A stretch of DNA of 64,000 nt from a phage (GCA_027468165.1 GCA_027468165.1_3951.1), one strand, 5' to 3'; counted from the first letter of the stretch, positions 2,094 through 60,334 are shown. Numbers and translations: made by a program. The notes: a model not told the origin generated them from the letters alone.

Positions 2094-2624
2094 ATGAACA
2101 AATTTCAAGCTATCAACTATATTCGTTCCGTCAATGTCATGTCAAAGCCTGTAAAAGATACGTATGAATTTCGTTGTAATGGTGTACACTTCGCAACAAT
2201 CACCAAATCAGAAAACGGGGCTTATTACGTTCATCGCCGTAATGTTGCAACCGTTGTAGTCTCTCATTTTATGCAAGCTGTCGCGGAACTTCTCCCGATG
2301 TTTTTGGGTCTTTACTTGGATGAGTGTAAAAACGTTCATAATCACGTTAAAAGCCTTTTAAATAGTTATAAAATGGCTTATGAGCGTTCTATCAAGTCCT
2401 TAAACAAGTTTTACAACGCACCTGAAAATACTGTATCAATGGCCTACGATGTAAATGGTGAGGCGGTGAGTCTCTTTGAAGTGGAAAAAATCAAGCTGTA
2501 CAATTTACTCCCTAACGATTACGCTAAAACCATCGGTGAAGGTTTAACGTTCAATATCAAGAACTTAGAAAAAACTTTAAAAGATATTGAAAAAGACATT
2601 GACGAGACAATCAAAAATCTGTAA
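2094..2624 (+). CDS. Hypothetical protein (176 aa)
   Basis: ORF track; leader cassette upstream. Confidence 0.6.
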   Translation: MNKFQAINYIRSVNVMSKPVKDTYEFRCNGVHFATITKSENGAYYVHRRNVATVVVSHFMQAVAELLPMFLGLYLDECKNVHNHVKSLLNSYKMAYERSIKSLNKFYNAPENTVSMAYDVNGEAVSLFEVEKIKLYNLLPNDYAKTIGEGLTFNIKNLEKTLKDIEKDIDETIKNL

Positions 2625-2689
2625 ATTACTAATCAACGGGAGGGATAACCTCCCAACTAAATAAAACCCTTAAACTAGGAGATTCAAAA
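2599..2689 (+). promoter_or_regulatory. Early promoter plus leader cassette (copy 4): -35 TTGACG, -10 TAAATT 2622-2627, hairpin GGGAGG/CCTCCC, SD
   Basis: Repeated cassette; stem shows compensatory changes relative to the other copies. Confidence 0.55.
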
Positions 2690-2938
2690 ATGGCAACTAT
2701 CCGCGCAATTGTAAATTCTTATGGCTGCTACACTCTGGATGTTAAATTTGATATTGGTGGAACTGATGAATGCTTTTCCTTAGTGAAAACAGTTATCAAG
2801 CAAGTTATCCCAGATTATAACCCTACTGATGACTTCTGGAAAGATGCCGTGAAAGAGGCGTTAAACGATGAATACCATTACCATTACTGGGGTGATTTGA
2901 TTGTATCCCTGTACTACGATAAAAAAGGCACTAACTAA
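2690..2938 (+). CDS. Hypothetical protein (82 aa)
   Basis: ORF track; leader cassette upstream. Confidence 0.55.
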   Translation: MATIRAIVNSYGCYTLDVKFDIGGTDECFSLVKTVIKQVIPDYNPTDDFWKDAVKEALNDEYHYHYWGDLIVSLYYDKKGTN

Positions 2939-2976
2939 TCAACGCAGCGGGGCTAAAATAGCCCCAGATACCTTTA

Positions 2977-3027
2977 AAGCCCCTTTATACTGATTCGATA
3001 GAATCTATCTCATAGGGGCTTTTTTAC
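2977..3027 (+). terminator. Terminator-like hairpin (AAGCCCCT ... AGGGGCTT followed by TTTTTT)
   Basis: 8-bp GC-rich stem with a large loop then T6; downstream of the plus-strand early genes. Confidence 0.45.
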
Positions 3028-13904: not shown

Positions 13905-13981
13905 CTCTGTTTAGCTCAGCTTGGTAGAGCGTTCCGTTTGGGGCGGTAAGGCCGGAGGTTCAAGTCCTCCAACAGAGACCA
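13905..13981 (+). tRNA. tRNA-Pro (anticodon UGG)
   Basis: Manual fold: acceptor CTCTGTT/AACAGAG, D-arm GCTCAGCTTGGTAGAGC, anticodon loop TTTGGGG, T-arm GGAGG-TTCAAGT-CCTCC, CCA encoded. Confidence 0.7.
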
Positions 13982-13988
13982 AATTAAT

Positions 13989-14066
13989 GTTCCAGTAGAC
14001 AAAATGGTATAGTCACCACTCTTTCAAAGTGGATATTTGAGGGTTCAAATCCCTTCTGGAACGCCA
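13989..14066 (+). tRNA. tRNA-Glu (anticodon UUC)
   Basis: Acceptor GTTCCAG/CTGGAAC, anticodon stem-loop CCACT-CTTTCAA-AGTGG, T-loop TTCAAAT, CCA encoded. Confidence 0.75.
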
Positions 14067-14073
14067 GTTTTGA

Positions 14074-14146
14074 CAGAAGACCAATTGCAGCAAACTTAAT
14101 CTTATTCATCTGACACGAAATCGGACAAAGAAGAGATTTGGTCTGG
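14074..14146 (+). repeat. tRNA-spacer element E1 (5' CAGAAGACC ... 3' GGTCTGG)
   Basis: Conserved termini able to pair (AGACC/GGTCT); starts 8 nt after tRNA-Glu and ends 12 nt before the next tRNA. Confidence 0.5.
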
Positions 14147-14157
14147 TCATTAAGAAT

Positions 14158-14234
14158 TGCGGGTATAGAGAAAGGGCGTCTCACATGTCTCATTAGCATG
14201 GTATCGGCAGGTTCGACTCCTGCACCCGCCTCCA
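14158..14234 (+). tRNA. tRNA-Met (anticodon CAU), initiator-like
   Basis: Anticodon stem-loop CATGT-CTCATTA-GCATG, T-arm GCAGG-TTCGACT-CCTGC, acceptor with unpaired 1:72 position; D-arm atypical. Confidence 0.55.
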
Positions 14235-14240
14235 ATTTTG

Positions 14241-14300
14241 CAGAAGACCGTATGCAGCAATAAACTACTTTTTGCGGATAAAAGAAAAAACACGGTCTGG
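14241..14300 (+). repeat. tRNA-spacer element E2 (CAGAAGACC ... GGTCTGG)
   Basis: Same terminal motifs and same placement relative to flanking tRNAs as E1. Confidence 0.5.
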
Positions 14301-14311
14301 CAATGTATTAA

Positions 14312-14385
14312 GGTTAGGAAGCACATAAGGTATGTGCGGTCGCCTGTTAAGCGAATGGCACAGGGTTCGAATCCCTGACTAACCG
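14312..14385 (+). tRNA. tRNA-Asn (anticodon GUU)
   Basis: Acceptor GGTTAGG/ACTAACC, D-stem GCAC/GTGC, anticodon loop CTGTTAA, T-arm CAGGG-TTCGAAT-CCCTG. Confidence 0.65.
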
Positions 14386-14396
14386 CAAATTTAAAT

Positions 14397-14484
14397 GTGT
14401 CGTTATCCCGTAGATGGTAGCGGTGGGGACTGTAAATCCCTTGTCATTGAGACTCGGTAGGTTCGACTCCTACACGGCACACCA
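14397..14484 (+). tRNA. tRNA-Tyr (anticodon GUA), long variable arm
   Basis: Acceptor GTGTCGT/ACGGCAC, anticodon loop CTGTAAA, ~14-nt variable arm, T-arm GTAGG-TTCGACT-CCTAC, CCA encoded. Confidence 0.7.
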
Positions 14485-14545
14485 ATTTTGAGAGGGCTAT
14501 TTAGCCCCTCCCTTAAAGGGTTCTTACGAGTATCCTTTAAAGGAG

Positions 14546-14619
14546 CAGAAGACCAAATACAGCAAGTTACTTAAAATTTCAAGCTAATTTAATTTTGAAA
14601 AATTTAAAACTTGGTCTGG
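14546..14619 (+). repeat. tRNA-spacer element E3 (CAGAAGACC ... GGTCTGG)
   Basis: Same terminal motifs. Confidence 0.5.
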
Positions 14620-14632
14620 CTCAACAAATTTA

Positions 14633-14763
14633 CAGAAGACCGTTTACAGCAAAACTTAAACAATCTATTTCTCGGTAAAGAAAAGGCGAAGGTTCGATTC
14701 CTTCACTCGGCAGATGTCGAGTTGGTGTAATGGTAGCACTTAAGATGATAAACAACGGTCTGG
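14633..14763 (+). repeat. tRNA-spacer element E4 (CAGAAGACC ... GGTCTGG) enclosing a tRNA-like fragment
   Basis: Same terminal motifs; interior contains T-arm and acceptor-like hairpins. Confidence 0.5.
14688..14739 (+). other. tRNA-like fragment in permuted order (T-arm + 3' acceptor strand, then complementary 5' acceptor strand + D-arm); no anticodon arm
   Basis: GAAGG-TTCGATT-CCTTC then ACTCGGC, 4-nt gap, then GTCGAGT + TGGTGTAATGGTAGCAC; the two acceptor strands are complementary. Confidence 0.3.
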
Positions 14764-14866
14764 TAATTATCTTTGCAGTAGCTTATGTGGCTAATTATGT
14801 CGTCCCATGAGTGCCGATGAATTTCCTTAGCATGATTCTAGATTAGCTTAATAGGAAATGACTCTA

Positions 14867-14887
14867 CAGACCCTTTAGCAAGGTCTG
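14867..14887 (+). repeat. Minimal spacer element E5 (CAGACC-CTTTAGCAA-GGTCTG)
   Basis: Shares the AGACC/GGTCT closing stem and GCAA motif with E1-E4. Confidence 0.4.
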
Positions 14888-14914
14888 CGTAGGTTACTGC
14901 AAAGATAATTTAAT

Positions 14915-14990
14915 GGAAGTGTAGCAGAATGGTGATGCGGCAGACTTTTAATCTGACAGGCGACGGGTTCGAATCCCTCCACTTCTACCA
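14915..14990 (+). tRNA. tRNA-Lys (anticodon UUU)
   Basis: Acceptor GGAAGTG/CACTTCT, anticodon loop CTTTTAA, T-loop TTCGAAT, CCA encoded; T-stem weak. Confidence 0.6.
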
Positions 14991-14994
14991 ATAT

Positions 14995-15071
14995 GGTTCA
15001 GTCGCAGATAAGGTAATGCAAGGGTCTCATAAGCCCTATGAATGTGGGTTCGATTCCCATCTGAACCTCCA
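14995..15071 (+). tRNA. tRNA with anticodon CAU (elongator Met or Ile-lysidine)
   Basis: Acceptor GGTTCAG/CTGAACC, anticodon stem-loop AGGGT-CTCATAA-GCCCT, T-loop TTCGATT, CCA encoded. Confidence 0.65.
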
Positions 15072-15072
15072 A

Positions 15073-15148
15073 GCTGGTATAGTTAAGAAGGTTATAACAC
15101 TCCCCTGATAAGGGAACATCGGTGGTTCGATTCCACCTACCAGTACCA
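15073..15148 (+). tRNA. tRNA-Ile (anticodon GAU)
   Basis: Acceptor GCTGGTA/TACCAGT, anticodon loop CTGATAA, T-arm GGTGG-TTCGATT-CCACC, CCA encoded. Confidence 0.7.
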
Positions 15149-15157
15149 ATTTCAATA

Positions 15158-15192
15158 AAGTTGTTGACATTGATATGTGACCACTTTATAGT
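15158..15192 (+). promoter_or_regulatory. Putative internal promoter: A-tract, TTGACA 15164-15169, 17 bp, TATAGT 15187-15192
   Basis: Near-consensus sigma70 elements. Confidence 0.5.
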
Positions 15193-15484
15193 AACTAAAA
15201 TACTTCATAATATGTATAATTCAAACACCAATACATGAGCGTTAGACGTAACACAATGTGGGGAAATTTGTTGTACATATTCTGAATAGTTTTCGTTGCG
15301 TAGCGTCTATTTTGCAAATTTAAAATAAATGCAAACGACAATGTTTTTCTGGCAGTAGCTTGATAGGCTAAACACCAGTGAGGTCTTCCAATCCCTCATC
15401 AAAGAATTTGGCGTACTCGCCCACGGTATGATTAATAAGGTGGGCATCTTTAAGGGTTTTTTAAGAGAGTCTTTAAAGATTAAT

Positions 15485-15561
15485 GCACCCTTAGTTCAAC
15501 TGGACAGAACAAATGACTTCTAATCATTAGGTTACAGGTTCGAATCCTGTAGGGTGTGCCA
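15485..15561 (+). tRNA. tRNA-Arg (anticodon UCU)
   Basis: Acceptor GCACCCT/AGGGTGT, D-stem GTTC/GAAC, anticodon stem-loop AATGA-CTTCTAA-TCATT, T-arm ACAGG-TTCGAAT-CCTGT, CCA encoded. Confidence 0.75.
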
Positions 15562-15576
15562 GTTTAAGAGGTATAT

Positions 15577-15918
15577 ATGAAGAACGGCTCTATAGGAGAA
15601 ATTGCAACTCAACTTGAGTTTATGAAGATGGGATATGAAATCTACTCACCAGCAACTGACAATGCTAGGTATGATTTTATAGCTCACAAAGACGGTAAAC
15701 TTTATAAAGTTGAAGTTAAATCCACCTCAAGGAAAGTTAGAGATGTATGGAAAGTGCAACTAAAGAGAGTTCATTCAAATAGAAGTTCAAACAGAATAGC
15801 TAACTTTGATAACACGTTAGTTGATTTCTTATCAGTTTATATTGAACCTCTTGAAAAGGTTATAATCCTTAAAGCTAAAGACGTTACTTCAAAAACTGAG
15901 TTAAGCTTAAGGGTTTAG
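15577..15918 (+). CDS. Small PD-(D/E)xK nuclease-like protein (113 aa) embedded in the tRNA array
   Basis: Motif D(FIA)...KVEVKS resembling the PD...(D/E)xK catalytic core; strong SD. Confidence 0.5.
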   Translation: MKNGSIGEIATQLEFMKMGYEIYSPATDNARYDFIAHKDGKLYKVEVKSTSRKVRDVWKVQLKRVHSNRSSNRIANFDNTLVDFLSVYIEPLEKVIILKAKDVTSKTELSLRV

Positions 15919-16027
15919 ATTATCTTCTGTAAGGAGGTGGTCTGTATCTCATGTTTCCAGAACATGTAAATAATCTGAGAAGGGGCTTTACAGTGTTGCG
16001 AAAATACGGTAAGCTTCGAATTATAGT

Positions 16028-16110
16028 ATGGGACGATGTTAAGACTCTAAGGCATGAGCAACGGCTTCCAACACCGTTTCAAAGGGGTTCAACTCCTCCG
16101 TCCCATGCCA
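16028..16110 (+). tRNA. Atypical tRNA-like gene, possibly tRNA-Trp (anticodon CCA) with enlarged D-region
   Basis: Perfect acceptor ATGGGAC/GTCCCAT, anticodon stem-loop ACGGC-TTCCAAC-ACCGT, T-loop TTCAACT, CCA encoded; D-region ~7 nt too long. Confidence 0.4.
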
Positions 16111-16122
16111 AGTCTTATTAGG

Positions 16123-16210
16123 GGTAGGTAGCGGCTAATGGTAGCCAAACTGTCTTGAAAACAGTTGCCACTGTAGAGATACGGTGAGGGTTCGACTCCT
16201 TTACTTACCG
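16123..16210 (+). tRNA. tRNA-Ser (anticodon UGA), long variable arm
   Basis: Anticodon stem-loop ACTGT-CTTGAAA-ACAGT, ~20-nt variable arm, T-loop TTCGACT. Confidence 0.6.
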
Positions 16211-16465
16211 CCTAATAAGATTTAAAGCCAAGCTTCATTCGGATGTTGCTTTGGTATCCCTCGTGTATTGTCGTACACAAGTAAAGCACCTAGTAGGTGT
16301 CACGGAGAAGAGATAATATCAAGCTCTCCAAAGGTTCTAGTCACCGGATTAAACAAGACTATGCAAAGGCCTATTTAGGTCTTTTTAGAGGGCTTCTAAG
16401 GTTATTACAGCTTGTTGTGGAACCTTGTTGCTTAGGTTCTTAGAAGTTCTCTAAAAAGATTTAAT

Positions 16466-16543
16466 GGGAGATTGACGGTAATTGGTAAACCTATCTCGCT
16501 TAGAACGAGATGTTTGAGGGTTCGAATCCCTTGTCTCCTACCA
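16466..16543 (+). tRNA. tRNA with anticodon UAG (Leu), short variable region
   Basis: Acceptor GGGAGAT/GTCTCCT, anticodon stem-loop TCTCG-CTTAGAA-CGAGA, 5-nt variable region, T-arm GAGGG-TTCGAAT-CCCTT, A73, CCA encoded. Confidence 0.6.
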
Positions 16544-16550
16544 AATTAAT

Positions 16551-16626
16551 GCAGGTGTAGCAAAATGGTTATGCGGCTGACTCTTAATCAGTAAGACGAT
16601 GGGTTCAATTCCCTCCACCTGTACCA
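16551..16626 (+). tRNA. tRNA-Lys (anticodon CUU)
   Basis: Acceptor GCAGGTG/CACCTGT, anticodon stem-loop GCTGA-CTCTTAA-TCAGT, T-loop TTCAATT, CCA encoded. Confidence 0.65.
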
Positions 16627-16632
16627 GACATT

Positions 16633-16708
16633 GGGGATGTAGTTTACATGGTTAAAACATAAGTTTTGCAAACTTAAGTACAGGGTTCAATTCCCTGCTT
16701 CTCCACCA
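16633..16708 (+). tRNA. tRNA-Ala (anticodon UGC)
   Basis: G3:U70 wobble pair in acceptor stem, D-stem GTTT/AAAC, anticodon stem-loop TAAGT-TTTGCAA-ACTTA, T-arm CAGGG-TTCAATT-CCCTG, CCA encoded. Confidence 0.75.
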
Positions 16709-16714
16709 ATTAGT

Positions 16715-16789
16715 GCATCCATAGTTTAAACGGGAAAATTACAGTCTTCCAAACTGAGGTTGAGGGTTCGATTCCCTCTGGATGCTCCA
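16715..16789 (+). tRNA. tRNA-Gly (anticodon UCC)
   Basis: Acceptor GCATCCA/TGGATGC, anticodon loop CTTCCAA, T-arm GAGGG-TTCGATT-CCCTC, CCA encoded. Confidence 0.7.
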
Positions 16790-16796
16790 AATTAAT

Positions 16797-16873
16797 GCTG
16801 CTTTCGTATAATTGGCTATTACACATCCCTTGTAAGGATGGAAATGCAGGTTCGAGTCCTGTGAGCAGCACCA
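16797..16873 (+). tRNA. tRNA-Thr (anticodon UGU)
   Basis: Acceptor GCTGCTT/GAGCAGC, anticodon stem-loop CATCC-CTTGTAA-GGATG, T-arm GCAGG-TTCGAGT-CCTGT, CCA encoded. Confidence 0.75.
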
Positions 16874-16968
16874 ATTCAGAGGTCAAGTGAAAGACCGCTG
16901 GTGTCAACTGAAGACCGTAACAAATTCCACGGAGTTGAGTTAGCGGCACAACTTCAGACCTCTTTCAT

Positions 16969-17043
16969 ACTCGCTTAGTTTATATGGTAAAACACCACCC
17001 TTACAAGATGAAGAAAAAGGTTCAAGTCCTTTAGTGAGTACCA
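16969..17043 (+). tRNA. tRNA-Val (anticodon UAC)
   Basis: Acceptor ACTCGCT/AGTGAGT, D-stem GTTT/AAAC, anticodon loop CTTACAA, T-arm AAAGG-TTCAAGT-CCTTT, CCA encoded; anticodon stem weak. Confidence 0.6.
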
Positions 17044-17044
17044 T

Positions 17045-17122
17045 GTTCCAGTATCCCAATTGGTAGAGGATGCAAGCTCAAACCTTGTACTAGTGACGGT
17101 TCGAATCCGTCTTGGAACACCA
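17045..17122 (+). tRNA. tRNA with anticodon CAA (Leu), short variable region
   Basis: Acceptor GTTCCAG/TTGGAAC, anticodon stem-loop GCAAG-CTCAAAC-CTTGT, 6-nt variable region, T-arm GACGG-TTCGAAT-CCGTC, A73, CCA encoded. Confidence 0.6.
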
Positions 17123-17236
17123 ACTTTAGGAGAGCACTGTGAGTGATAAGTCAATAGCAAAAAAGTTTAGAGCGTCATACCTAAACAGACGTAAAAACAG
17201 AGATTGTGAAAAACTGTATGGTGTTCTTGTAGGTAA

Positions 17237-17312
17237 GCAGGATTAGTTCAAATGGATAGAGCAACAGTCTACGAAGCTGTTAATAGGGGTTCGAATCCCT
17301 TATCCTGCGCCA
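17237..17312 (+). tRNA. tRNA-Arg (anticodon ACG)
   Basis: Perfect acceptor GCAGGAT/ATCCTGC, anticodon stem-loop ACAGT-CTACGAA-GCTGT, T-loop TTCGAAT, CCA encoded. Confidence 0.75.
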
Positions 17313-17331
17313 ATTTAAAGAGGCTATTTAG

Positions 17332-17889
17332 ATGAGATATTTGAAGTATGCTTCATGGATTTTCTTAGCTTTGTTAGAGCCATTTGCAGCAATCTTAGCA
17401 GTTATCTTAGCACCTTTCGTAGTTCCATTTTACAGTGAGAAGAAAGGACACTTACCTTTCGGCTTCAGATGGATGGAAACATACGACAACCCAATTGATG
17501 GTGATAAAGGTCATGTCGAACGGTGGGCTAAGATTAGAAAGATTGGTAAGCTCGGTGTCTACATGCAGAGAGTTGGATGGCTCTGGAGAAACAAAGCTTA
17601 TAACTTCTCTTACCATGTGTTAGGAAGAGATGTAAAAGATGTTACTAAGTGGAAAGGTAATATCAATGTAAGTTCTAACCCTGAAGATAATCAGACAGGT
17701 TATCTCCTAATGTGGAACAGTAATGCTTGGGGGTTATTCGCTTTTATCCCATCAATTAAAGTCTTTGGTAAACAATTCTACTGGAGAATTTATGTTGGGT
17801 GGAAACTTAAAAGTGTTGTCCCAGAAGAAAGAGCATTCTCAAGGGAAAGAGTTATGTTGGCATTCTTTATTCATCCACTGAGAAAGTAA
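17332..17889 (+). CDS. Membrane protein with hydrophobic N-terminus (185 aa) embedded in the tRNA array
   Basis: ORF track; N-terminal segment WIFLALLEPFAAILAVILAPFVVPF; ATG 20 nt after tRNA-Arg. Confidence 0.5.
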   Translation: MRYLKYASWIFLALLEPFAAILAVILAPFVVPFYSEKKGHLPFGFRWMETYDNPIDGDKGHVERWAKIRKIGKLGVYMQRVGWLWRNKAYNFSYHVLGRDVKDVTKWKGNINVSSNPEDNQTGYLLMWNSNAWGLFAFIPSIKVFGKQFYWRIYVGWKLKSVVPEERAFSRERVMLAFFIHPLRK

Positions 17890-17897
17890 AGATTTAA

Positions 17898-17973
17898 AGG
17901 GGATTAGTTTACAAGGTTAAAACCTCGGTCTTTGAAATCGAAGAAGTTGGTTCAATTCCAACATCCCCCGCCA
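17898..17973 (+). tRNA. tRNA-Gln (anticodon UUG)
   Basis: D-stem GTTT/AAAC, anticodon stem-loop TCGGT-CTTTGAA-ATCGA, T-arm GTTGG-TTCAATT-CCAAC, CCA encoded; position 1:72 unpaired. Confidence 0.65.
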
Positions 17974-17975
17974 AT

Positions 17976-18054
17976 GCTCCATTACTCCAATTGGCAGAGA
18001 GGCCAGACTTAAAATCTGTGTTATGTATCGGTTCGAATCCGATATGGAGTACCA
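17976..18054 (+). tRNA. tRNA with anticodon UAA (Leu), short variable region
   Basis: Acceptor GCTCCAT/ATGGAGT, anticodon loop CTTAAAA, 7-nt variable region, T-arm ATCGG-TTCGAAT-CCGAT, A73, CCA encoded. Confidence 0.6.
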
Positions 18055-18059
18055 AATTT

Positions 18060-18135
18060 AGCGGTATAGCATAACTGGCAATGCAACAGTCTCTGAAGCT
18101 GTCTTATTAAGGTTCAAATCCTTATGCCGCTGCCA
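18060..18135 (+). tRNA. tRNA-Gln (anticodon CUG)
   Basis: Acceptor AGCGGTA/TGCCGCT, D-stem GCAT/ATGC, anticodon stem-loop ACAGT-CTCTGAA-GCTGT, T-arm TAAGG-TTCAAAT-CCTTA, CCA encoded. Confidence 0.7.
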
Positions 18136-18166
18136 CTTCTAAGGGTTCTTACGAGAGTCCTTAAAT

Positions 18167-18242
18167 GTGGCCTTATCATAAATGGTAATGACCCATGCTG
18201 TGAACATGGTCTATACGGGTTCAAATCCCGTAGGTCACCCCA
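18167..18242 (+). tRNA. tRNA-His (anticodon GUG)
   Basis: Acceptor GTGGCCT/AGGTCAC, D-stem TCAT/ATGA, anticodon stem-loop CCATG-CTGTGAA-CATGG, T-arm ACGGG-TTCAAAT-CCCGT, C73, CCA encoded. Confidence 0.75.
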
Positions 18243-18247
18243 ATTTA

Positions 18248-18324
18248 TAGTCCAAGTAGCTTATATGGTTAAAGCGCGTGTCTGAAAAACATGAGAAGAG
18301 GGTTCAAATCCCACTGGACTACCA
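18248..18324 (+). tRNA. tRNA-Phe (anticodon GAA); ends uncertain
   Basis: D-stem GCTT/AAGC, anticodon stem-loop CGTGT-CTGAAAA-ACATG, T-loop TTCAAAT; acceptor pairing admits two registers. Confidence 0.55.
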
Positions 18325-18340
18325 ATTTCAAAGGTGCTTA

Positions 18341-19075
18341 ATGAAAGAGATGACAGAACAAGGTAAGGAGATTTTTAATCTCTTAAAAACTGGTAGAGGG
18401 TTTTCTAATCCCCTTATTACTGGTGCAGCAGTTCTCGGTGGAACCGTAGCTGCCTCTACATCACTTGTAAGCTCTATTAGCTCTGTAACAGACCCTACAA
18501 TAAAGGATAAACTTGTTGCGGCTGGACTTACAACAGTTCTGCTTAACAGCTTTACAACGAGTCTGACAAGCACTACATCAACCACTAAGACACTGACAGA
18601 TTACGGTCAAAAGTCCATTGATGAGTTTTCATCACGTATGCAGGTAGCAAAAGGATATTCCAATGTTATGGGTGCAGCAGGAGAACAAGTCGGTTGTACA
18701 CCATTTAGTGGTATTATGGGTGTTGCTACAGAGTACGGTCAAAAAGCTATTGACACAATTAACAGTACACTAGATGGTGTTAATGATGTATTAAGTGACT
18801 TACAAGATGCTATTGATAAAGGTCTTGATACTGTTTCTGATTTAGCTAATCAGGCTGTTAGTAAGATTAATGAAGGTATTTCGAAGATTACAGCTTATGC
18901 AAATGAAGTTGTGCAGATGATTGAAGAAGAAGCTGCCCTTATTGCAGAGTACCTTAAAACGAATATCAATGGGTTCTTAGCAGGTATCTTACCAGACTGG
19001 TTTGATGATGCTTGTAAAACTGGTGTGATTGACACTATTGCAACACCAGAAATGAAGAGCGCATTACAGAAATAA
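18341..19075 (+). CDS. Hypothetical Ser/Thr-rich protein (245 aa from the ATG at 18341)
   Basis: ORF-track frame trimmed to the first ATG downstream of tRNA-Phe (MKEMTEQ...). Confidence 0.5.
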   Translation: MKEMTEQGKEIFNLLKTGRGFSNPLITGAAVLGGTVAASTSLVSSISSVTDPTIKDKLVAAGLTTVLLNSFTTSLTSTTSTTKTLTDYGQKSIDEFSSRMQVAKGYSNVMGAAGEQVGCTPFSGIMGVATEYGQKAIDTINSTLDGVNDVLSDLQDAIDKGLDTVSDLANQAVSKINEGISKITAYANEVVQMIEEEAALIAEYLKTNINGFLAGILPDWFDDACKTGVIDTIATPEMKSALQK

Positions 19076-19076
19076 T

Positions 19077-19169
19077 GGAAGATTAACCCTAAAAGGTAAG
19101 GGAGCAGTTTGCTAAACTGCCAGTAGCTGAGAAATCGGTGTACCAGTTCAAGTCTGGTATCTTCCTCCA
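19077..19169 (+). tRNA. tRNA-Ser (anticodon GCU), long variable arm
   Basis: Acceptor GGAAGAT/ATCTTCC, anticodon stem-loop GCAGT-TTGCTAA-ACTGC, ~21-nt variable arm, T-arm ACCAG-TTCAAGT-CTGGT, CCA encoded. Confidence 0.6.
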
Positions 19170-19173
19170 ATTT

Positions 19174-19249
19174 GAATCCGTGACAGAAATGGCTATGTGC
19201 CTGTCTGCAAAACAGGTTTATAAGGGTTCGAGTCCCTTCGGATTCTCCA
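19174..19249 (+). tRNA. tRNA-Cys (anticodon GCA)
   Basis: Perfect acceptor GAATCCG/CGGATTC, anticodon stem-loop CCTGT-CTGCAAA-ACAGG, T-arm AAGGG-TTCGAGT-CCCTT, U73, CCA encoded. Confidence 0.7.
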
Positions 19250-49363: not shown

Positions 49364-49424
49364 AAGCCCTCCTATATAAGATATTGTATAAGGTACTCTT
49401 CCATGAGCACCTTGTCAATACTAA

Positions 49425-49979
49425 TCAGTGTACTTCAAGCCAATTTTTACCAACTTTACCAGTACCAGTTACAAGCGTTTCCTCCTTAAGCCCTAAATTT
49501 CTTGACGCTTGACCATACATCCAGTCAATTACTGCTTTAACATCCTGCGTCATGTCTTCTGGGCACTCCCAACTATTCTCATCGTGATATGCTAAAAGCA
49601 ATCTAGCGCCAATAGCTGGTTTTCGACCATTCAACTTTGTAAGACCCTCTTCACAAGTTCTTCTACAAGCAAGGTTGATGGCTTCATTCTGAACCTGACT
49701 TTCAGAACCCATAAGCAAATAATTCAATAACTTATGTGGAGATTTACACCACAACCAAGCTCCAGCAACCTTTACAAACCCTCCTTTAGAGATTGCGGCA
49801 GTCTTACCAAATACCTCTTCAAGAGCCTTCTTAGTAGCTTTGAAGTCTGCTTCTAAATTATCCAGCAGCTTCTTAATTTTAGGGAGACGTACAAAGTATG
49901 TTTGCTTAGTTAAAGCACCCTCCTCAGTTGTAGATGCTTTAATCGTCTTAGCAAATTTCTCATCGCCAGCCCCGAACAA
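49425..49979 (-). CDS. DNA polymerase (family A), C-terminal segment / exon 2 (motif B second half and motif C)
   Basis: Begins FGAGDEKFAK (second half of the T7 gene 5 / Klenow O-helix motif) and contains LLAYHDE (motif C); no ATG or SD at its 5' end. Confidence 0.7.
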   Translation of the reverse strand: MFGAGDEKFAKTIKASTTEEGALTKQTYFVRLPKIKKLLDNLEADFKATKKALEEVFGKTAAISKGGFVKVAGAWLWCKSPHKLLNYLLMGSESQVQNEAINLACRRTCEEGLTKLNGRKPAIGARLLLAYHDENSWECPEDMTQDVKAVIDWMYGQASRNLGLKEETLVTGTGKVGKNWLEVH

Positions 49980-50778
49980 TACATCTGGTCAATACACTCG
50001 CAAGGTGTACCAGTTCTCTTATGAACTTCTCCGCATTTCTACGGAGTGTCGGACTATATCACGTAGCAGTGATGCTACCGTTGCACTTGGGAATGGTCAT
50101 TAGCTTACCACCCTACTCTACTCAGTTCATACGTTAAGTATGCCTTTCGATAGTCTCTGAACGTTTCTCTGTTAGGAATCTCTATAGTTATGTTATTTAC
50201 TTAGGTAGTCAATTGCTCTTTGCATATTATCAACGCTATCTGCAAGCAACCCCAAAGCTCTGTTGCAATTGTGGCATAACATACCTCTTACCTTTCCGGT
50301 TTTATGGTCATGGTCAACAACAAGTTTAGCCTTGTGTCGTGAACCATTCATGATAAAACCTTCACCGCCACAAATTTGACATTTGTAATCACAGTCACGG
50401 AGTAGAGCTTCAACCTCTTCTCTTTCCAATCCATATGTTCTTAGGTAGTAATTCTTAACTCTACCTTTCTCACCGCAATGTGACGAACAATAAACTTGCC
50501 TTGCTGTTCTCGGCATGAACACCTTCTCACAACTAGGACATTTCTTAGTAAGAACCCTGTGTTCTGCCCTTCTGTCAAACTTTAATACACAACTTCTGCA
50601 CCGTTTCTGATTGTATTGGTATGGTTTAAACTCCGTACCACACTCAGTGCATAATCTCTCTTCGTAACCTGCCATTGTCTCTCTCCTTGTTTTAGGAGTC
50701 CTAACAGAGACTTCGCTGCTGATTACCATATCTTTACAGACTTAGGCTTCCAGCAATTCACAACGTTTTACATGCGCC
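49980..50778 (-). mobile_element. Intervening sequence (~0.8 kb) splitting the DNA polymerase inside motif B; carries an HNH endonuclease ORF (candidate group I intron)
   Basis: Polymerase motifs A and first half of B lie upstream, second half of B and motif C downstream; boundaries approximate. Confidence 0.55.
50193..50729 (-). CDS. HNH homing endonuclease
   Basis: HNH core DHDHKTGKVRGMLCHNCNRALG plus two N-terminal Cys4 zinc-finger-like clusters. Confidence 0.8.
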   Translation of the reverse strand: MVISSEVSVRTPKTRRETMAGYEERLCTECGTEFKPYQYNQKRCRSCVLKFDRRAEHRVLTKKCPSCEKVFMPRTARQVYCSSHCGEKGRVKNYYLRTYGLEREEVEALLRDCDYKCQICGGEGFIMNGSRHKAKLVVDHDHKTGKVRGMLCHNCNRALGLLADSVDNMQRAIDYLSK

Positions 50779-52955
50779 ACTGACGCATAAATGCCATTTT
50801 TGGCTTTCTTACGACCTTTACTAATTTCTTGAAGAAGACTTGCATCCTGTGTAGCTCGACATGTCAAGATGTCTTCCTCTTTATTAAGACTGAAGTAGAT
50901 ACTATTTAAAGTATGTGCATCAGTTCCTGAGTACACCACGTACAAGTCATTTTCCGAATCATAATGCAAATACTTGTCAATCTCTGGGTTTAGATACTGG
51001 TCAAAATGTTTGCAATAATATCTACCATCCTCTTGTTTGACAAACTCAACCTCTTCTTTACCCTCTGTCACTGCTTTGGTGAACTCTTTATCACCCATAA
51101 AGTTACACAGCAGTACAAGTTGCGCGCTATTCATATCTGCTGAAACAATATTAGTTCCTTCTTCACAAGTCCAAACTTCCCTCATAGGTGCTCCATAGAC
51201 AGCAGCACCAGACGGTACGTTTACAATACCATATTGTGTCATACGTCCAGTTGAAGTACCAAATACCATTGCACCAGCACTAAGGCGACCATCTGGACGA
51301 ATCTGGTTCAACCAACCTTTTTCATCATCCTTTGAGTTCTCAATAGTTCTGCGTCGGTGCATCAAAGTATAGTACTTAGCAATCTTCTGTCCAAGCTCAC
51401 CTTCAATCGTATCATAAGATGATTCAGTAAGTTTTGGTGAAGTCCTAATCAGACAAGGTTCAAGCAAATCTGTGTACTTCTTCACAGACCAGTTATGCTC
51501 AATGTACTGGACACCTTCGTGTTCAACATAGCTCAAACCACACCGTTCCACCATCTCATCCCACTTAGGATGCTTTGTAATCATCTTTTTGTTGTCTTTG
51601 AAGCGACAAACCTTAACAGGACGACCATCAGAGTCTTTCTTATAGTTCCAGTCATCTGGAATCCAACCAACTGATTTCAAGTAGTCTTTAACAACTGCTA
51701 CCTGAGTCATACGAGAAACTTCGAACTCAATTGGTGTATATGGTGCATCAATCAAACCTGTGTAGCGACTTGACTCAAGTTCAAAGTGGTTAACAACATG
51801 GCTGTTATAGTACTTCACAGTTTTAACTGTTTTTACTGGCTTCCAGTCTTTGCACTTCTTACCAATCTTTGCATTCAACTCATTGCAAATTGCACGAGCA
51901 TCCTTCATTGCTACAAAACCTTCCTTGTACTCTTCACCAGTTACGGAGTTGGTTGGTGTATAGCAATTCCGCTTTTCAATGTTAAAAATCTTTGTAGTTG
52001 GCTTACCAAATGGCTTGATTTCATATGTCTGCATCTCACCGTTACGTACCTGCTGACGATACTTTGTCTTAGGGTACTTGGTAATTCTCTTCAGTCCATC
52101 TGCATGGCCGAATGCTTCAACATACTCATTCCAAGCTTTTGCAAACTCTTCTCCAGTGACTTTGCCTTTGGTCTTAATAGTTGGAGGAAGATGTGGTTCA
52201 ACTTCTGAAGCAAGCTCATTAGTCAACTTGTCAAGTTCCTTTACATGGAACTCCATAAGCTCTTTATCAGCTTTCCAACCATTGATAGCTTGTTGACTCA
52301 TCCAGAAAGATGTTTCTTTAGCTCGCATGTAGGTTTCATAGGTGTCTACGCCACACTTCTTCAGCTTGAGATATTCATTATCCAGTGCACGTTTAGTTTT
52401 GGCGTTAATACGGATATCTTCTACAACACGAGTGAAGATTTCTGCATTCCACACACCCCAATGTTCAATCTCTGGTTTACGTACACCAACACGAGCACCC
52501 CATGCTGCCAAGCCATGAGCACCTTTATAGCCCTTTGGAGTTGGTCTATCCATCCACTGAACACGAGACTGGATAAGAGAATCCTGAAAGAAATTACTCC
52601 ACGGCTTACACTTTGGATTATCAAAGTTCCACAAATCAGGTGCAATGTGATTGAAAACCCACCAGTCATACCCTAAACCATTATGGATGCAAAGTCGTTT
52701 TGCCTTTAACGCAAACTCAATACCTTCACGCAAACCACCCTTAATGTACTTGGTATACTTGTGACCGAGGATAGGCTCATCTGTAAAGACCCATACAGGT
52801 GGCTCTTCATCGTCAGATTTATAGTCTGCGAAAGCCATTACGTGCACTTTAGTGAACTCAAGGAGTAAACCATCAGTTTCTGTATCACCAACTAAATGTA
52901 AGTTTTTAAAATCTACGTTTTCCATTTTTACTCCCTCTAAAATCATTAACCACAT
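50742..52955 (-). CDS. DNA polymerase (family A), N-terminal segment / exon 1 (exonuclease domain, motif A, first half of motif B)
   Basis: Motif A IVSADMNSAQL (Klenow LIVSADYSQIELR), then RKKAKNGIYASV (T7 RDNAKTFIYGFL); the frame runs on 11 codons to a stop. Confidence 0.85.
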   Translation of the reverse strand: MWLMILEGVKMENVDFKNLHLVGDTETDGLLLEFTKVHVMAFADYKSDDEEPPVWVFTDEPILGHKYTKYIKGGLREGIEFALKAKRLCIHNGLGYDWWVFNHIAPDLWNFDNPKCKPWSNFFQDSLIQSRVQWMDRPTPKGYKGAHGLAAWGARVGVRKPEIEHWGVWNAEIFTRVVEDIRINAKTKRALDNEYLKLKKCGVDTYETYMRAKETSFWMSQQAINGWKADKELMEFHVKELDKLTNELASEVEPHLPPTIKTKGKVTGEEFAKAWNEYVEAFGHADGLKRITKYPKTKYRQQVRNGEMQTYEIKPFGKPTTKIFNIEKRNCYTPTNSVTGEEYKEGFVAMKDARAICNELNAKIGKKCKDWKPVKTVKTVKYYNSHVVNHFELESSRYTGLIDAPYTPIEFEVSRMTQVAVVKDYLKSVGWIPDDWNYKKDSDGRPVKVCRFKDNKKMITKHPKWDEMVERCGLSYVEHEGVQYIEHNWSVKKYTDLLEPCLIRTSPKLTESSYDTIEGELGQKIAKYYTLMHRRRTIENSKDDEKGWLNQIRPDGRLSAGAMVFGTSTGRMTQYGIVNVPSGAAVYGAPMREVWTCEEGTNIVSADMNSAQLVLLCNFMGDKEFTKAVTEGKEEVEFVKQEDGRYYCKHFDQYLNPEIDKYLHYDSENDLYVVYSGTDAHTLNSIYFSLNKEEDILTCRATQDASLLQEISKGRKKAKNGIYASVAHVKRCELLEA

Positions 52956-58806: not shown

Positions 58807-59847
58807 ATGGAGAAGTATACGCTAACAAAACTTCCCGATTCAGTTACACATGTCTTTATTGACTCTGACAGTATTGCCTATAAAGGTGCTTGTGTAGTTG
58901 AGAAAGCAAAATATAAATATGTCAATAAACTCACAGCAGAAGAATCTGAACCATTTGATAATGCAAAAGATGCTGCAAGATGGTTAGCAGACCAGAGAAT
59001 CTTTGTAGAAGAGCTTGGCCTAACATTTGATGAAGATGAATGGGAAAGACAGACTTGGAAAGAAGCTAAGAGTGAAAAAGAAGCTATCATGGCTACTCAG
59101 CAGGTTCTTCAGGAATGGCTTAAGGTTGTTGGTAAAGAAAGAACTTGGGTAGGTTATTTAACAGAGAAGGGTGTGCATAAACATAAAGACGTTAAAGGTC
59201 TTGAGCACCAATATCAAGGTAACCGTAAAGATGCTGTCACACCAACACACTTAGTTGCTTGTCGTGAATATCTTTTATCCAGACCAGAGTTCAAACTCTT
59301 AAAGGGTGGATTCGAAGCTGATTCCATCGTAATTGCTAAAGCTGAAAAGATGGGTAAGAAAGCTGCTCTTATGAGTATTGACAAAGACCTTCGACAAGCT
59401 GAAGGAACCTATTGTATTGATATGACTTATGAAAAATCACCACTAATTTTTATCGCTGATAATAACGTTGGTGATATCTGGGATTGTCCTATCAAATCAA
59501 AACCAAAAGCTGCAAAAACAGTTGGTGTAGGTTTTAAATTTTTGTGTTATCAGGCTGTTGCTGGTGATAATGCAGATAACTACTTCGGTCTTAAAGGTGC
59601 TGGAAAAGTAGCTGTGATGAATGCTTTAGATGGTAAAGAGACCTATAAAGAGTGTCTTGACGCTATCTATGAACTCTATGCTAAAAAAGAGTCTTATACC
59701 TATGTATCATGGGATGGACAGACTGTTACAAAAACACCATTAGAGTTAATGGAGCAGCATTTCTGGGTAGCATATCAAGAGAGAAATCCAAAAGATAATT
59801 TCTCTTTTAAGAAATATAATTGGGAGCCGTGTATGAATGAAGATTAA
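58807..59847 (+). CDS. 5'-3' exonuclease (T7 gp6 / FEN-like)
   Basis: Pattern HVFIDSDSIAY...YQGNRK...MSIDKDL...AVAGDNADNYFG parallels T7 gp6; start trimmed to ATG with SD GGAGAG. Confidence 0.65.
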   Translation: MEKYTLTKLPDSVTHVFIDSDSIAYKGACVVEKAKYKYVNKLTAEESEPFDNAKDAARWLADQRIFVEELGLTFDEDEWERQTWKEAKSEKEAIMATQQVLQEWLKVVGKERTWVGYLTEKGVHKHKDVKGLEHQYQGNRKDAVTPTHLVACREYLLSRPEFKLLKGGFEADSIVIAKAEKMGKKAALMSIDKDLRQAEGTYCIDMTYEKSPLIFIADNNVGDIWDCPIKSKPKAAKTVGVGFKFLCYQAVAGDNADNYFGLKGAGKVAVMNALDGKETYKECLDAIYELYAKKESYTYVSWDGQTVTKTPLELMEQHFWVAYQERNPKDNFSFKKYNWEPCMNED

Positions 59848-60334
59848 AGGATTTGGCAATTGTCCTACCTATGGTCATTGGGTATCTTTATGTGGGGAAG
59901 TTGACCCCACTAAACATTTTGGTTTTGTCTACCTAGTGTACTGCAAAAAGACTGGACAGTATTATTTGGGTAAAAAACAGCTTAATAGTGTGACCAAAAG
60001 AAAAGTTGCTGGCAAGACTCGGAAGAAGGTAGTCACTAAGGAGAGTGATTGGATGACTTATGAGACTTCTTCTGAGTATATTAAGAAAGATATCGAGAGC
60101 TTTGGAAAAGAATTTTTTGACTTTTACATTATCCAAACCTACTACACGAAAGGTGGCCTAGTTTATGGTGAAGCAAACCTCCAACATAAATTCGATGTAA
60201 TGACAAAAAGGATTGACTCTAAGCTCAGACTCTTCTACAATGCCAATATTGCAGCAATTAAGTTTATTACTAAAGAAACTTATGAAGATGCTGAAAAAAG
60301 AATCCATAAGATAATGAAAGCAAACTGTGCTTGA
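59837..60334 (+). CDS. GIY-YIG domain protein (possible free-standing homing endonuclease)
   Basis: GFVYLVYCKKTGQYYLGKK aligns with the I-TevI GIY...YIG core. Confidence 0.5.
   Translation: MKIKGFGNCPTYGHWVSLCGEVDPTKHFGFVYLVYCKKTGQYYLGKKQLNSVTKRKVAGKTRKKVVTKESDWMTYETSSEYIKKDIESFGKEFFDFYIIQTYYTKGGLVYGEANLQHKFDVMTKRIDSKLRLFYNANIAAIKFITKETYEDAEKRIHKIMKANCA

Follow-up and report, generated by a model that had tools for sequence, protein, structure and literature searches.

A predicted mobile group I intron with its own homing endonuclease gene within a Felix O1-like phage's DNA polymerase gene

We analyzed a 64,000-nucleotide (nt) stretch of phage DNA (GCA_027468165.1, sequence GCA_027468165.1_3951.1; hereafter the window) in which the gene for a family A DNA polymerase is broken within motif B. 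We conclude, with a probability of roughly 0.92, that the break is an 801-nt mobile group I intron that carries its own homing endonuclease gene. Positions are counted from the first letter of the window, and the polymerase gene and everything inside it lie on the minus strand. The region is nearest to the Felix O1-like myophages of the genus Felixounavirus: 259 phage records match it, the top match being Salmonella phage OPT-SAL01 with 97.7% identity over 3.8 kb, and phage JH2 is 97% identical to the window across the region.

A preliminary description of this DNA had placed three open reading frames (ORFs) here, and our analysis confirmed all of them. The upstream polymerase ORF (50742..52955; 737 amino acids, aa) encodes the exonuclease domain, motif A (IVSADMNSAQL) and the sequence RKKAKNGIYASV, after which it runs for 11 codons to a stop. 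The middle ORF (50193..50729) encodes 178 aa. The downstream polymerase ORF (49425..49979; 184 aa) has the N-terminus FGAGDEKFAK, holds the motif AYHDE and offers a TTG as its only start, in agreement with the earlier remark that it has neither an ATG nor a Shine-Dalgarno sequence. Scored separately against Pfam DNA_pol_A, the two polymerase ORFs reach 18.6 and 26.7 bits, both below the cut-off of 34.3, while the protein predicted from splicing reaches 57.5 bits, above a cut-off that neither fragment attains. GenBank records of the relatives list two separate 'DNA polymerase' coding sequences (CDSs) plus an endonuclease.

The limits of the insertion could be fixed by comparison with uninterrupted alleles. 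The polymerase of Felix O1 has been reported as uninterrupted with 906 aa (PMC3185647), that of UAB_Phi87 is uninterrupted with 910 aa, and a query made of the fused exons matches more than 100 Felixounavirus records as one ungapped 800-nt piece. Where intron-less UAB_Phi87 reads GGT ATC TAT GCA C|TG CTG TTC GGT (G-I-Y-A-L-L-F-G), the window reads GGC ATT TAT GCG T, followed by 801 nt and then by TA TTG TTC GGG. This alignment therefore sets the insertion at 50782..49982, the end of exon 1 at U50783 and the start of exon 2 at 49981, and it replaces the approximate 0.8 kb given earlier for the interruption of motif B. Exon 1 (50783..52955) carries the exonuclease domain, motif A and the 5' half of motif B and ends in GGC AUU UAU GCG U, a boundary supported by alignment to both intron-less and ORF-less alleles and by the U.G pair of P1 described below. 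Exon 2 (49425..49981) begins with UA UUG UUC GGG (L L F G A G D E K), includes motif C (AYHDE) and ends with the stop at 49425. The intron follows the first base of a Leu codon. Read against the intron-less alleles, the TTG at the head of the downstream ORF is the second, internal Leu codon of the conserved A-L-L-F-G rather than a functional start.

Joining the exons in silico restores the gene. The junction GCG U|UA UUG yields GIYA-LLFGAGDEK, as in the intron-less relatives; the ligated sequence is predicted to read ...AUUUAUGCGU|UAUUGUUCGGG..., and the protein across it contains GIYALLFGAGDEK, identical at the junction to 7/7 intron-less alleles (compare ...TATGCACTGCTGTTCGG... in the intron-less allele of Felix O1 / UAB_Phi87). 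The spliced CDS would be 2730 nt long and encode 910 aa, the length of the uninterrupted UAB_Phi87 polymerase, and splicing would give rise to the junction-spanning tryptic peptide NGIYALLFGAGDEK. Junctions one base to either side give A-V-L or A-S-L instead of A-L-L, and a 3' splice at G49985 adds one residue too many; U50783|U49981 is the only junction that gives the A-L-L of the intron-less alleles. The restored protein also aligns with T7 DNA polymerase (residues 517-536) without a gap across the junction, GRKKAKNGIYALLFGAGDEK against TRDNAKTFIYGFLYGAGDEK, and the insertion point falls in the codon aligned with F528 of T7 gp5, which lies in the O-helix (motif B), with Y526 before it and Y530 after it. 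The preliminary description had joined the halves as ...GIYASV|FGAGDEK, a join misplaced by two residues: the intron supplies S and V, and exon 2 begins 2 bases upstream of the TTG. Its length match to T7 gene 5 holds in that the alignment has no gap, although the junction was misplaced, and the match survived the wrong join because the total length is equal.

The 801 nt from C50782 to the terminal G49982 have the features of a group I intron with an IA2-like architecture. A sensitive Rfam scan of the region returned a partial match to RF00028 at 50755..50666 (24.8 bits, E = 0.0011, model positions 60-139, which cover P3-P6), beginning just downstream of the exon 1 boundary, and a second sub-threshold match at 14.5 bits. 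In phages Tf and garuso the insertion occupies the same site in a 311-nt version that cleanly lacks the endonuclease ORF, and these copies match the full RF00028 model (1-253) at 62.9 and 63.3 bits (E ~6e-15), above the gathering score of 50 bits. With its ORF segment removed, the window intron is identical to the Tf copy at 302/311 positions. The preliminary description had proposed a covariance-model search and a P1-P9 fold as checks, and both came out in favor of the intron: the core was detected through the ORF-less copies, and the helices pair in the window up to a terminal G. Scans of the full window with Rfam found tRNAs only and no other intron.

By a complementarity script, P1, P3, P4, P5, P6, P7, P8, P9, P9.1 and P10 all pair in the window sequence, the 5' strand of P7 and the exon strand of P10 having been positioned by hand. 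In P1 (50771..50789), the exon bases UAUGCGU and the first intron base, together UAUGCGUC (50789..50782), pair with the internal guide GGCGCAUG (50778..50771) at 8/8 positions, including a splice-site U50783.G50777 pair. The 5' core (50699..50765) is made up of the P3 5' strand (50765..50761), P4 (50755..50750/50722..50717), P5 with a GUAA tetraloop and the P6 5' strand (50710..50699); the P6 3' strand, UUCCUAACAGAGA (50166..50178), forms a perfect 12-bp helix with the last of these and so encloses the ORF. The catalytic 3' core (50052..50155) comprises J6/7 (GUUCAGAGACUA) with the P7 5' strand GACUA at 50155..50151, P7.1/P7.2 at about 50143..50090, the P3 3' strand (50083..50079), P8 (50078..50063), and J8/7 (GAUAUAGUC) with the P7 3' strand UAGUC at 50056..50052. 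The helices read CGUUG/CAACG for P3, UGCUGG/UCAGCA for P4 and GACUA/UAGUC for P7, P8 has 6 bp, and the sequence agrees with the Rfam consensus at GUUCAgAGACUA and at J8/7. The 3' end (49982..50046) holds a 7-bp P9 with a GAAA tetraloop (50046..50029), P9.1 (50027..50012), a possible P9.2 and the terminal G. A P10 is possible between CAGUG (50782..50778) and the UAUUG of exon 2 (49981..49977), with 3 Watson-Crick and 2 G.U pairs. An unconstrained minimum free energy fold of the core recovered P3-P6, P7.1, P7.2, P8, P9 and P9.1 (-86.2 kcal/mol, z = -2.64). Between P7 and the P3 3' strand, a stretch of about 66 nt (50150..50084) forms P7.1 (CAUAC/GUAUG) and P7.2 (GGG-UGGU/ACCA-UU-CCC), an extension that is typical of subgroup IA.

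The endonuclease gene lies in the loop of P6. The preliminary description had it start at 50729, but the ATG at 50675 is probably the start codon: it is preceded by a Shine-Dalgarno sequence (AAGGAG, 50688..50683), it gives a protein of 160 aa (50193..50675), and the orthologous CDS of phage JLBYU32 is annotated with the equivalent start. The same description called the product an HNH endonuclease. There is indeed an endonuclease ORF in the insertion, but its family is a different one, as no canonical HNH family of Pfam matches the middle ORF at E<=0.01, while Endonuclease_7 (PF02945) matches residues 97-177 of the 178-aa ORF at 71 bits (cut-off 23.6; E = 7.6e-20). The best PHROG match is PHROG 307, 'endonuclease VII' (1e-41); one PHROG labelled HNH matches weakly and ranks under three Endo VII PHROGs. 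Two N-terminal Cys4 zinc-ribbon-like motifs precede a C-terminal catalytic domain, in which CQIC, VVDHDH, VRG and CHNCN align with the active sites of Hpy99I (3fc3, E = 1.4e-5) and T4 Endo VII (1e7d). Judged by these matches, the protein is 'HNH' solely at the level of the His-Me finger superfamily and belongs to the Endonuclease VII/DHHRN type.

Compared with the copy in JLBYU32 (~79% aa identity), the endonuclease gene has a proportion of nonsynonymous differences (pN) of 0.12 and of synonymous differences (pS) of 0.82, a pN/pS of 0.15, and it is therefore maintained by purifying selection. We used raw pN and pS, the Jukes-Cantor dN/dS being unusable with saturated synonymous sites. The flanking exon is likewise saturated in this comparison (pS 0.80), and the ribozyme core is 90-92% identical. 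A conserved core beside a saturated ORF and exon suggests that core and ORF either have resided together for long, with the RNA under strong constraint, or have had separate histories. We also observed a hairpin within 50677..50711 (-14.6 kcal/mol, z = -2.4) in which the P6 5' strand GUCUCU pairs with AGAGAC, and CUCC with GGAG, a part of the endonuclease Shine-Dalgarno sequence. It competes with the long-range P6, and its stems are kept in the diverged JLBYU32 copy with a different loop. As modelled, this hairpin may couple translation of the endonuclease to folding of the intron.

From these features the following course of events can be proposed. The polymerase gene would be transcribed as a single pre-mRNA, in which the intron would fold with the exon sequence UAUGCGU paired to the internal guide. 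Guanosine would attack after U50783; P10 would align exon 2, and exon 1 would then attack after the terminal G49982. Translation of the ligated mRNA would give the continuous 910-aa polymerase (...RKKAKNGIYALLFGAGDEK...). The 160-aa endonuclease would be translated separately from the P6 loop and would presumably cleave, close to the insertion site, the intron-less polymerase alleles that co-infecting relatives carry, whereupon recombinational repair would copy the intron in.

Several points weigh against this reading. The window's own intron stays below the Rfam gathering score, with a partial match of 24.8 bits; it is sub-threshold because a 490-nt ORF occupies the P6 loop, and the family assignment depends on the near-identical ORF-less copies together with the helix checks. 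Covariation within Felixounavirus is minimal, as the core is almost invariant; a single pair, in P8, is compensatory (C-G to U-A, U.G being the intermediate). Comparison with a Yersinia phage intron discussed below is favorable, in that the sequences of P3, P4, P8 and P9 differ and all still pair, which suggests covariation between lineages in a hand-made alignment that carries no statistical scoring. The predicted activity and target of the endonuclease derive from its family membership and context only, and the literature that we searched holds no RNA data, splicing assay or cleavage assay.

One could also take the GenBank annotation of the relatives, two 'DNA polymerase' CDSs and an endonuclease, at face value, so that the separately translated ORFs form a two-subunit enzyme around a free-standing endonuclease gene and no splicing takes place; the TTG does provide a formal start for the downstream ORF. 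We consider this highly unlikely. It is the O-helix that is broken; the TTG corresponds to a conserved Leu codon in the uninterrupted alleles and has no ATG or Shine-Dalgarno sequence to support it, and the exon 1 product would carry 13 unrelated residues and lack the Leu. No promoter-like site was found ahead of exon 2, nor any promoter-like or terminator-like site on the coding strand inside the intron. A complete group I core flanks the ORF, and ORF-less forms of 311 nt and 268 nt at the same site would be senseless as scars of a gene insertion. The preference of the preliminary description for self-splicing by a group I intron over two polypeptides is borne out by the RF00028 matches, the core helices and the restored protein. 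Other intervening elements have a negligible probability. Inteins typically break essential genes at conserved motifs, as here, but this insertion is not an in-frame ORF, since it meets a stop after 13 codons and its endonuclease has its own frame and start. The Rfam and Pfam scans found neither a group II match nor a reverse transcriptase, and translational bypassing, like an intein or a group II intron, is opposed by the positive identification of a group I core.

A further question is what the ORF does if the intron splices. Its Pfam family is named after the T4 resolvase and Endo VII acts as a resolvase in many phages, so the product could be a Holliday-junction resolvase of that kind, and a maturase or an inactive remnant can also be imagined. 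The frequency of ORF-less introns indicates that neither splicing nor the phage requires the ORF, which is compatible with these roles but argues against an essential resolvase. The protein has its catalytic motif at the C-terminus and zinc-ribbon modules at the N-terminus, as do F-CphI and the 'endonuclease clade' (PMC6083498); a gene placed in the loop of an intron and equipped with a Shine-Dalgarno sequence of its own is classic for homing; and a pN/pS of 0.15 with saturated synonymous sites speaks against a remnant. We therefore consider a function other than homing improbable and retain the reading of a mobile intron with a homing endonuclease gene.

About 97 phage records hold at least 80% of the intron core, and more than 100 relatives have an empty site, so that chance does not account for the pattern. 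In the other Felixounaviruses the core is 90-100% identical, the Endo VII-type ORF has 79-100% aa identity and the insertion site is the same. Three forms occur at this one site: an ORF-containing form of 801-805 nt, an ORF-less form of 311 nt that retains the P6 helix, and an ORF-less form of 268 nt in which P6 is shortened to a 4-bp hairpin (CCUC-UUAA-GAGG). The empty, ORF-plus, ORF-less and trimmed forms look like stages of a homing cycle, namely gain, loss of the endonuclease gene and trimming. The segment that is absent from the 311-nt form is flanked in the window by similar short sequences, GACTCCTAAA (50691..50700) and GACTACCTAAG (50200..50210), consistent with loss or gain of the ORF by way of short direct repeats that recombined. 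About 500 nt are added at the end of polymerase exon 2 in Tf, garuso, Si3, GEC_vB_B1 and others, where a free-standing HNH endonuclease gene overlaps the exon. This gene is absent from the window (49364..49424) and is found elsewhere with ORF-less and ORF-containing introns alike.

The sequence around the site differs between the two groups of alleles. All 9/9 intron-plus alleles that we compared, which include the three intron forms and diverged exon backgrounds, read GCG U|UA UUG, whereas 7/7 intron-less alleles read GC(A/G) CU(G/A) CUG, and both versions encode A-L-L. Only the intron-plus flanks provide the U for the U.G pair, a complete P1 partner and a P10 partner. Codon choice at the junction tracks the presence of the intron perfectly; more than ~7 nt from it, the exon sequence is independent of which intron form is present. 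No intron-less allele with intron-type flanks (TATGCGTTATTGTTCGG) was found when IMG/VR was scanned for the exact pattern. The synonymous difference at the junction could reflect the requirements of P1 and P10, a very short co-conversion tract, or empty sites that resist cleavage. More tentatively, and at somewhat less than even odds, we propose that a full homing cycle is preserved at one O-helix site, that the intron and its endonuclease crossed phage families and were re-targeted within one conserved helix, and that the flanks GCGU|UAUUG as opposed to GCACUGCUG mark P1/P10 adaptation or cleavage-resistant empty alleles.

Elsewhere in the window, a free-standing SegE-like GIY-YIG endonuclease ORF lies on the plus strand at 59837..60334 (Pfam PF19835, E = 9.5e-27) and, judged by this match, is probably another homing endonuclease gene. 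Other interrupted genes were also considered, nrdD being reported as interrupted in phage Meda, and a Pfam scan of ten window ORFs gave just this GIY-YIG gene. A cluster of 23 tRNA genes occupies 13905..19246 on the plus strand, with a DUF7338 ORF embedded at 17332..17889; one of the tRNAs (16123..16210), with a long variable arm, in addition gives a weak tRNA-Sec score.

These results bear on annotation, as most GenBank records leave the intron unannotated and the exons unjoined and list two polymerase fragments and an 'endonuclease VII' instead of one polymerase of 910 aa encoded by the spliced gene, together with an intron and a homing endonuclease. Many such phages are candidates for biocontrol or therapy, and the splice coordinates permit the annotation to be corrected. 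The O-helix is added to the sites in family A polymerases that are occupied by mobile introns. The intron-plus genomes number about 100, in three structural forms, and the intron-less ones more than 100, which makes the site a well-sampled natural system in which homing, co-conversion and the loss of the endonuclease gene can be studied.

As a mobile group I intron the element is of a standard kind; it had previously been noted in near-identical phages, and it involves no new mechanism. Its nearest counterparts are in Felixounaviruses, where JH2, EC6 and FSL SP-010 (with the ORF) and Meda, Mushroom, Tf and garuso (without it) have the intron of the window with no essential difference. Proteins of the Escherichia phages JH2 and EC6 and of the Salmonella phage FSL SP-010 were described as intron-encoded members of the 'endonuclease clade' by Fang et al. 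2018, who defined the DHHRN (Endo VII-motif) homing endonuclease family (PMC6083498). An ORF-less intron is mentioned for the polymerase gene of Meda (PMC6486253), and the paper on SPJ41 counts "two introns" among its non-coding RNAs; the VpaE1 paper does not mention a split polymerase. We found no study dedicated to Felixounavirus group I introns, and none in which their splice site is mapped, their structure drawn, or their splicing or homing demonstrated.

The founding member of the DHHRN family is F-CphI of cyanophage S-PM2 (PMC6083498). The window protein matches it over its full length at 33% identity and shares its C-terminal Endo VII motif (DHDH, R, CxxC-N). F-CphI differs in being free-standing beside an ORF-less psbA intron, an arrangement termed 'collaborative homing', whereas the window gene lies inside its intron. 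Group I introns with His-Me finger endonucleases are also known from other phage family A polymerase genes, namely those of SPO1, SP82 and Bastille (I-HmuI, I-HmuII and I-BasI), Pf-WMP3 (I-PfoP3I), PhiI and W31 (I-TslI) and phiL7 (PMC3428280). These introns self-splice and are of IA2 type, which the window intron resembles in architecture; like it, they interrupt a conserved polymerase motif and carry their ORF in a peripheral loop, P6a in PhiI, W31 and Pf-WMP3 (PMC3428280). Their endonucleases are canonical HNH nickases, unlike the Endo VII/DHHRN type found here, and they sit at other places in the gene. The window intron lies at about position 764 of E. coli Pol I, in the O-helix, as mapped through T7 Y526, which we take to correspond to E. 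coli F762. The other introns are at positions 674, 676 and 881 (PMC3428280).

Outside the genus, the closest endonuclease is that of T7-like Yersinia phages, with 51% identity. In Yersinia phages Berlin and YpP-G and in LUZ24, DHHRN endonucleases have been described within group I introns of polymerase genes (PMC6083498). We examined Yersinia phage AKS2022HT54F_phi (locus 2317..2996), whose polymerase is interrupted by a group I intron of 680 nt at ACG UU|U AUC (T-F|I-Y; AKTF|IYGFLYG). This site is 11 nt upstream in the same motif, in the codon of T7 F524, as against the F528-equivalent codon in the window. The two introns resemble each other in their IA2-like type, in P7.1, in a GNRA-capped 7-bp P9 and in an endonuclease gene upstream of P7, and a 15-nt P9.1 hairpin (AGTTCATAAGAGAAC) is identical in both. 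By the 3' domain of the ribozyme as well as by its endonuclease, the Yersinia element would be the closest kin of the window intron. They differ in the sequences of P1, P3, P4 and P8 and in the phage that carries them, a podovirus there and a myovirus here. This pattern of likeness suggests transfer between phage families with a small shift in the target site.

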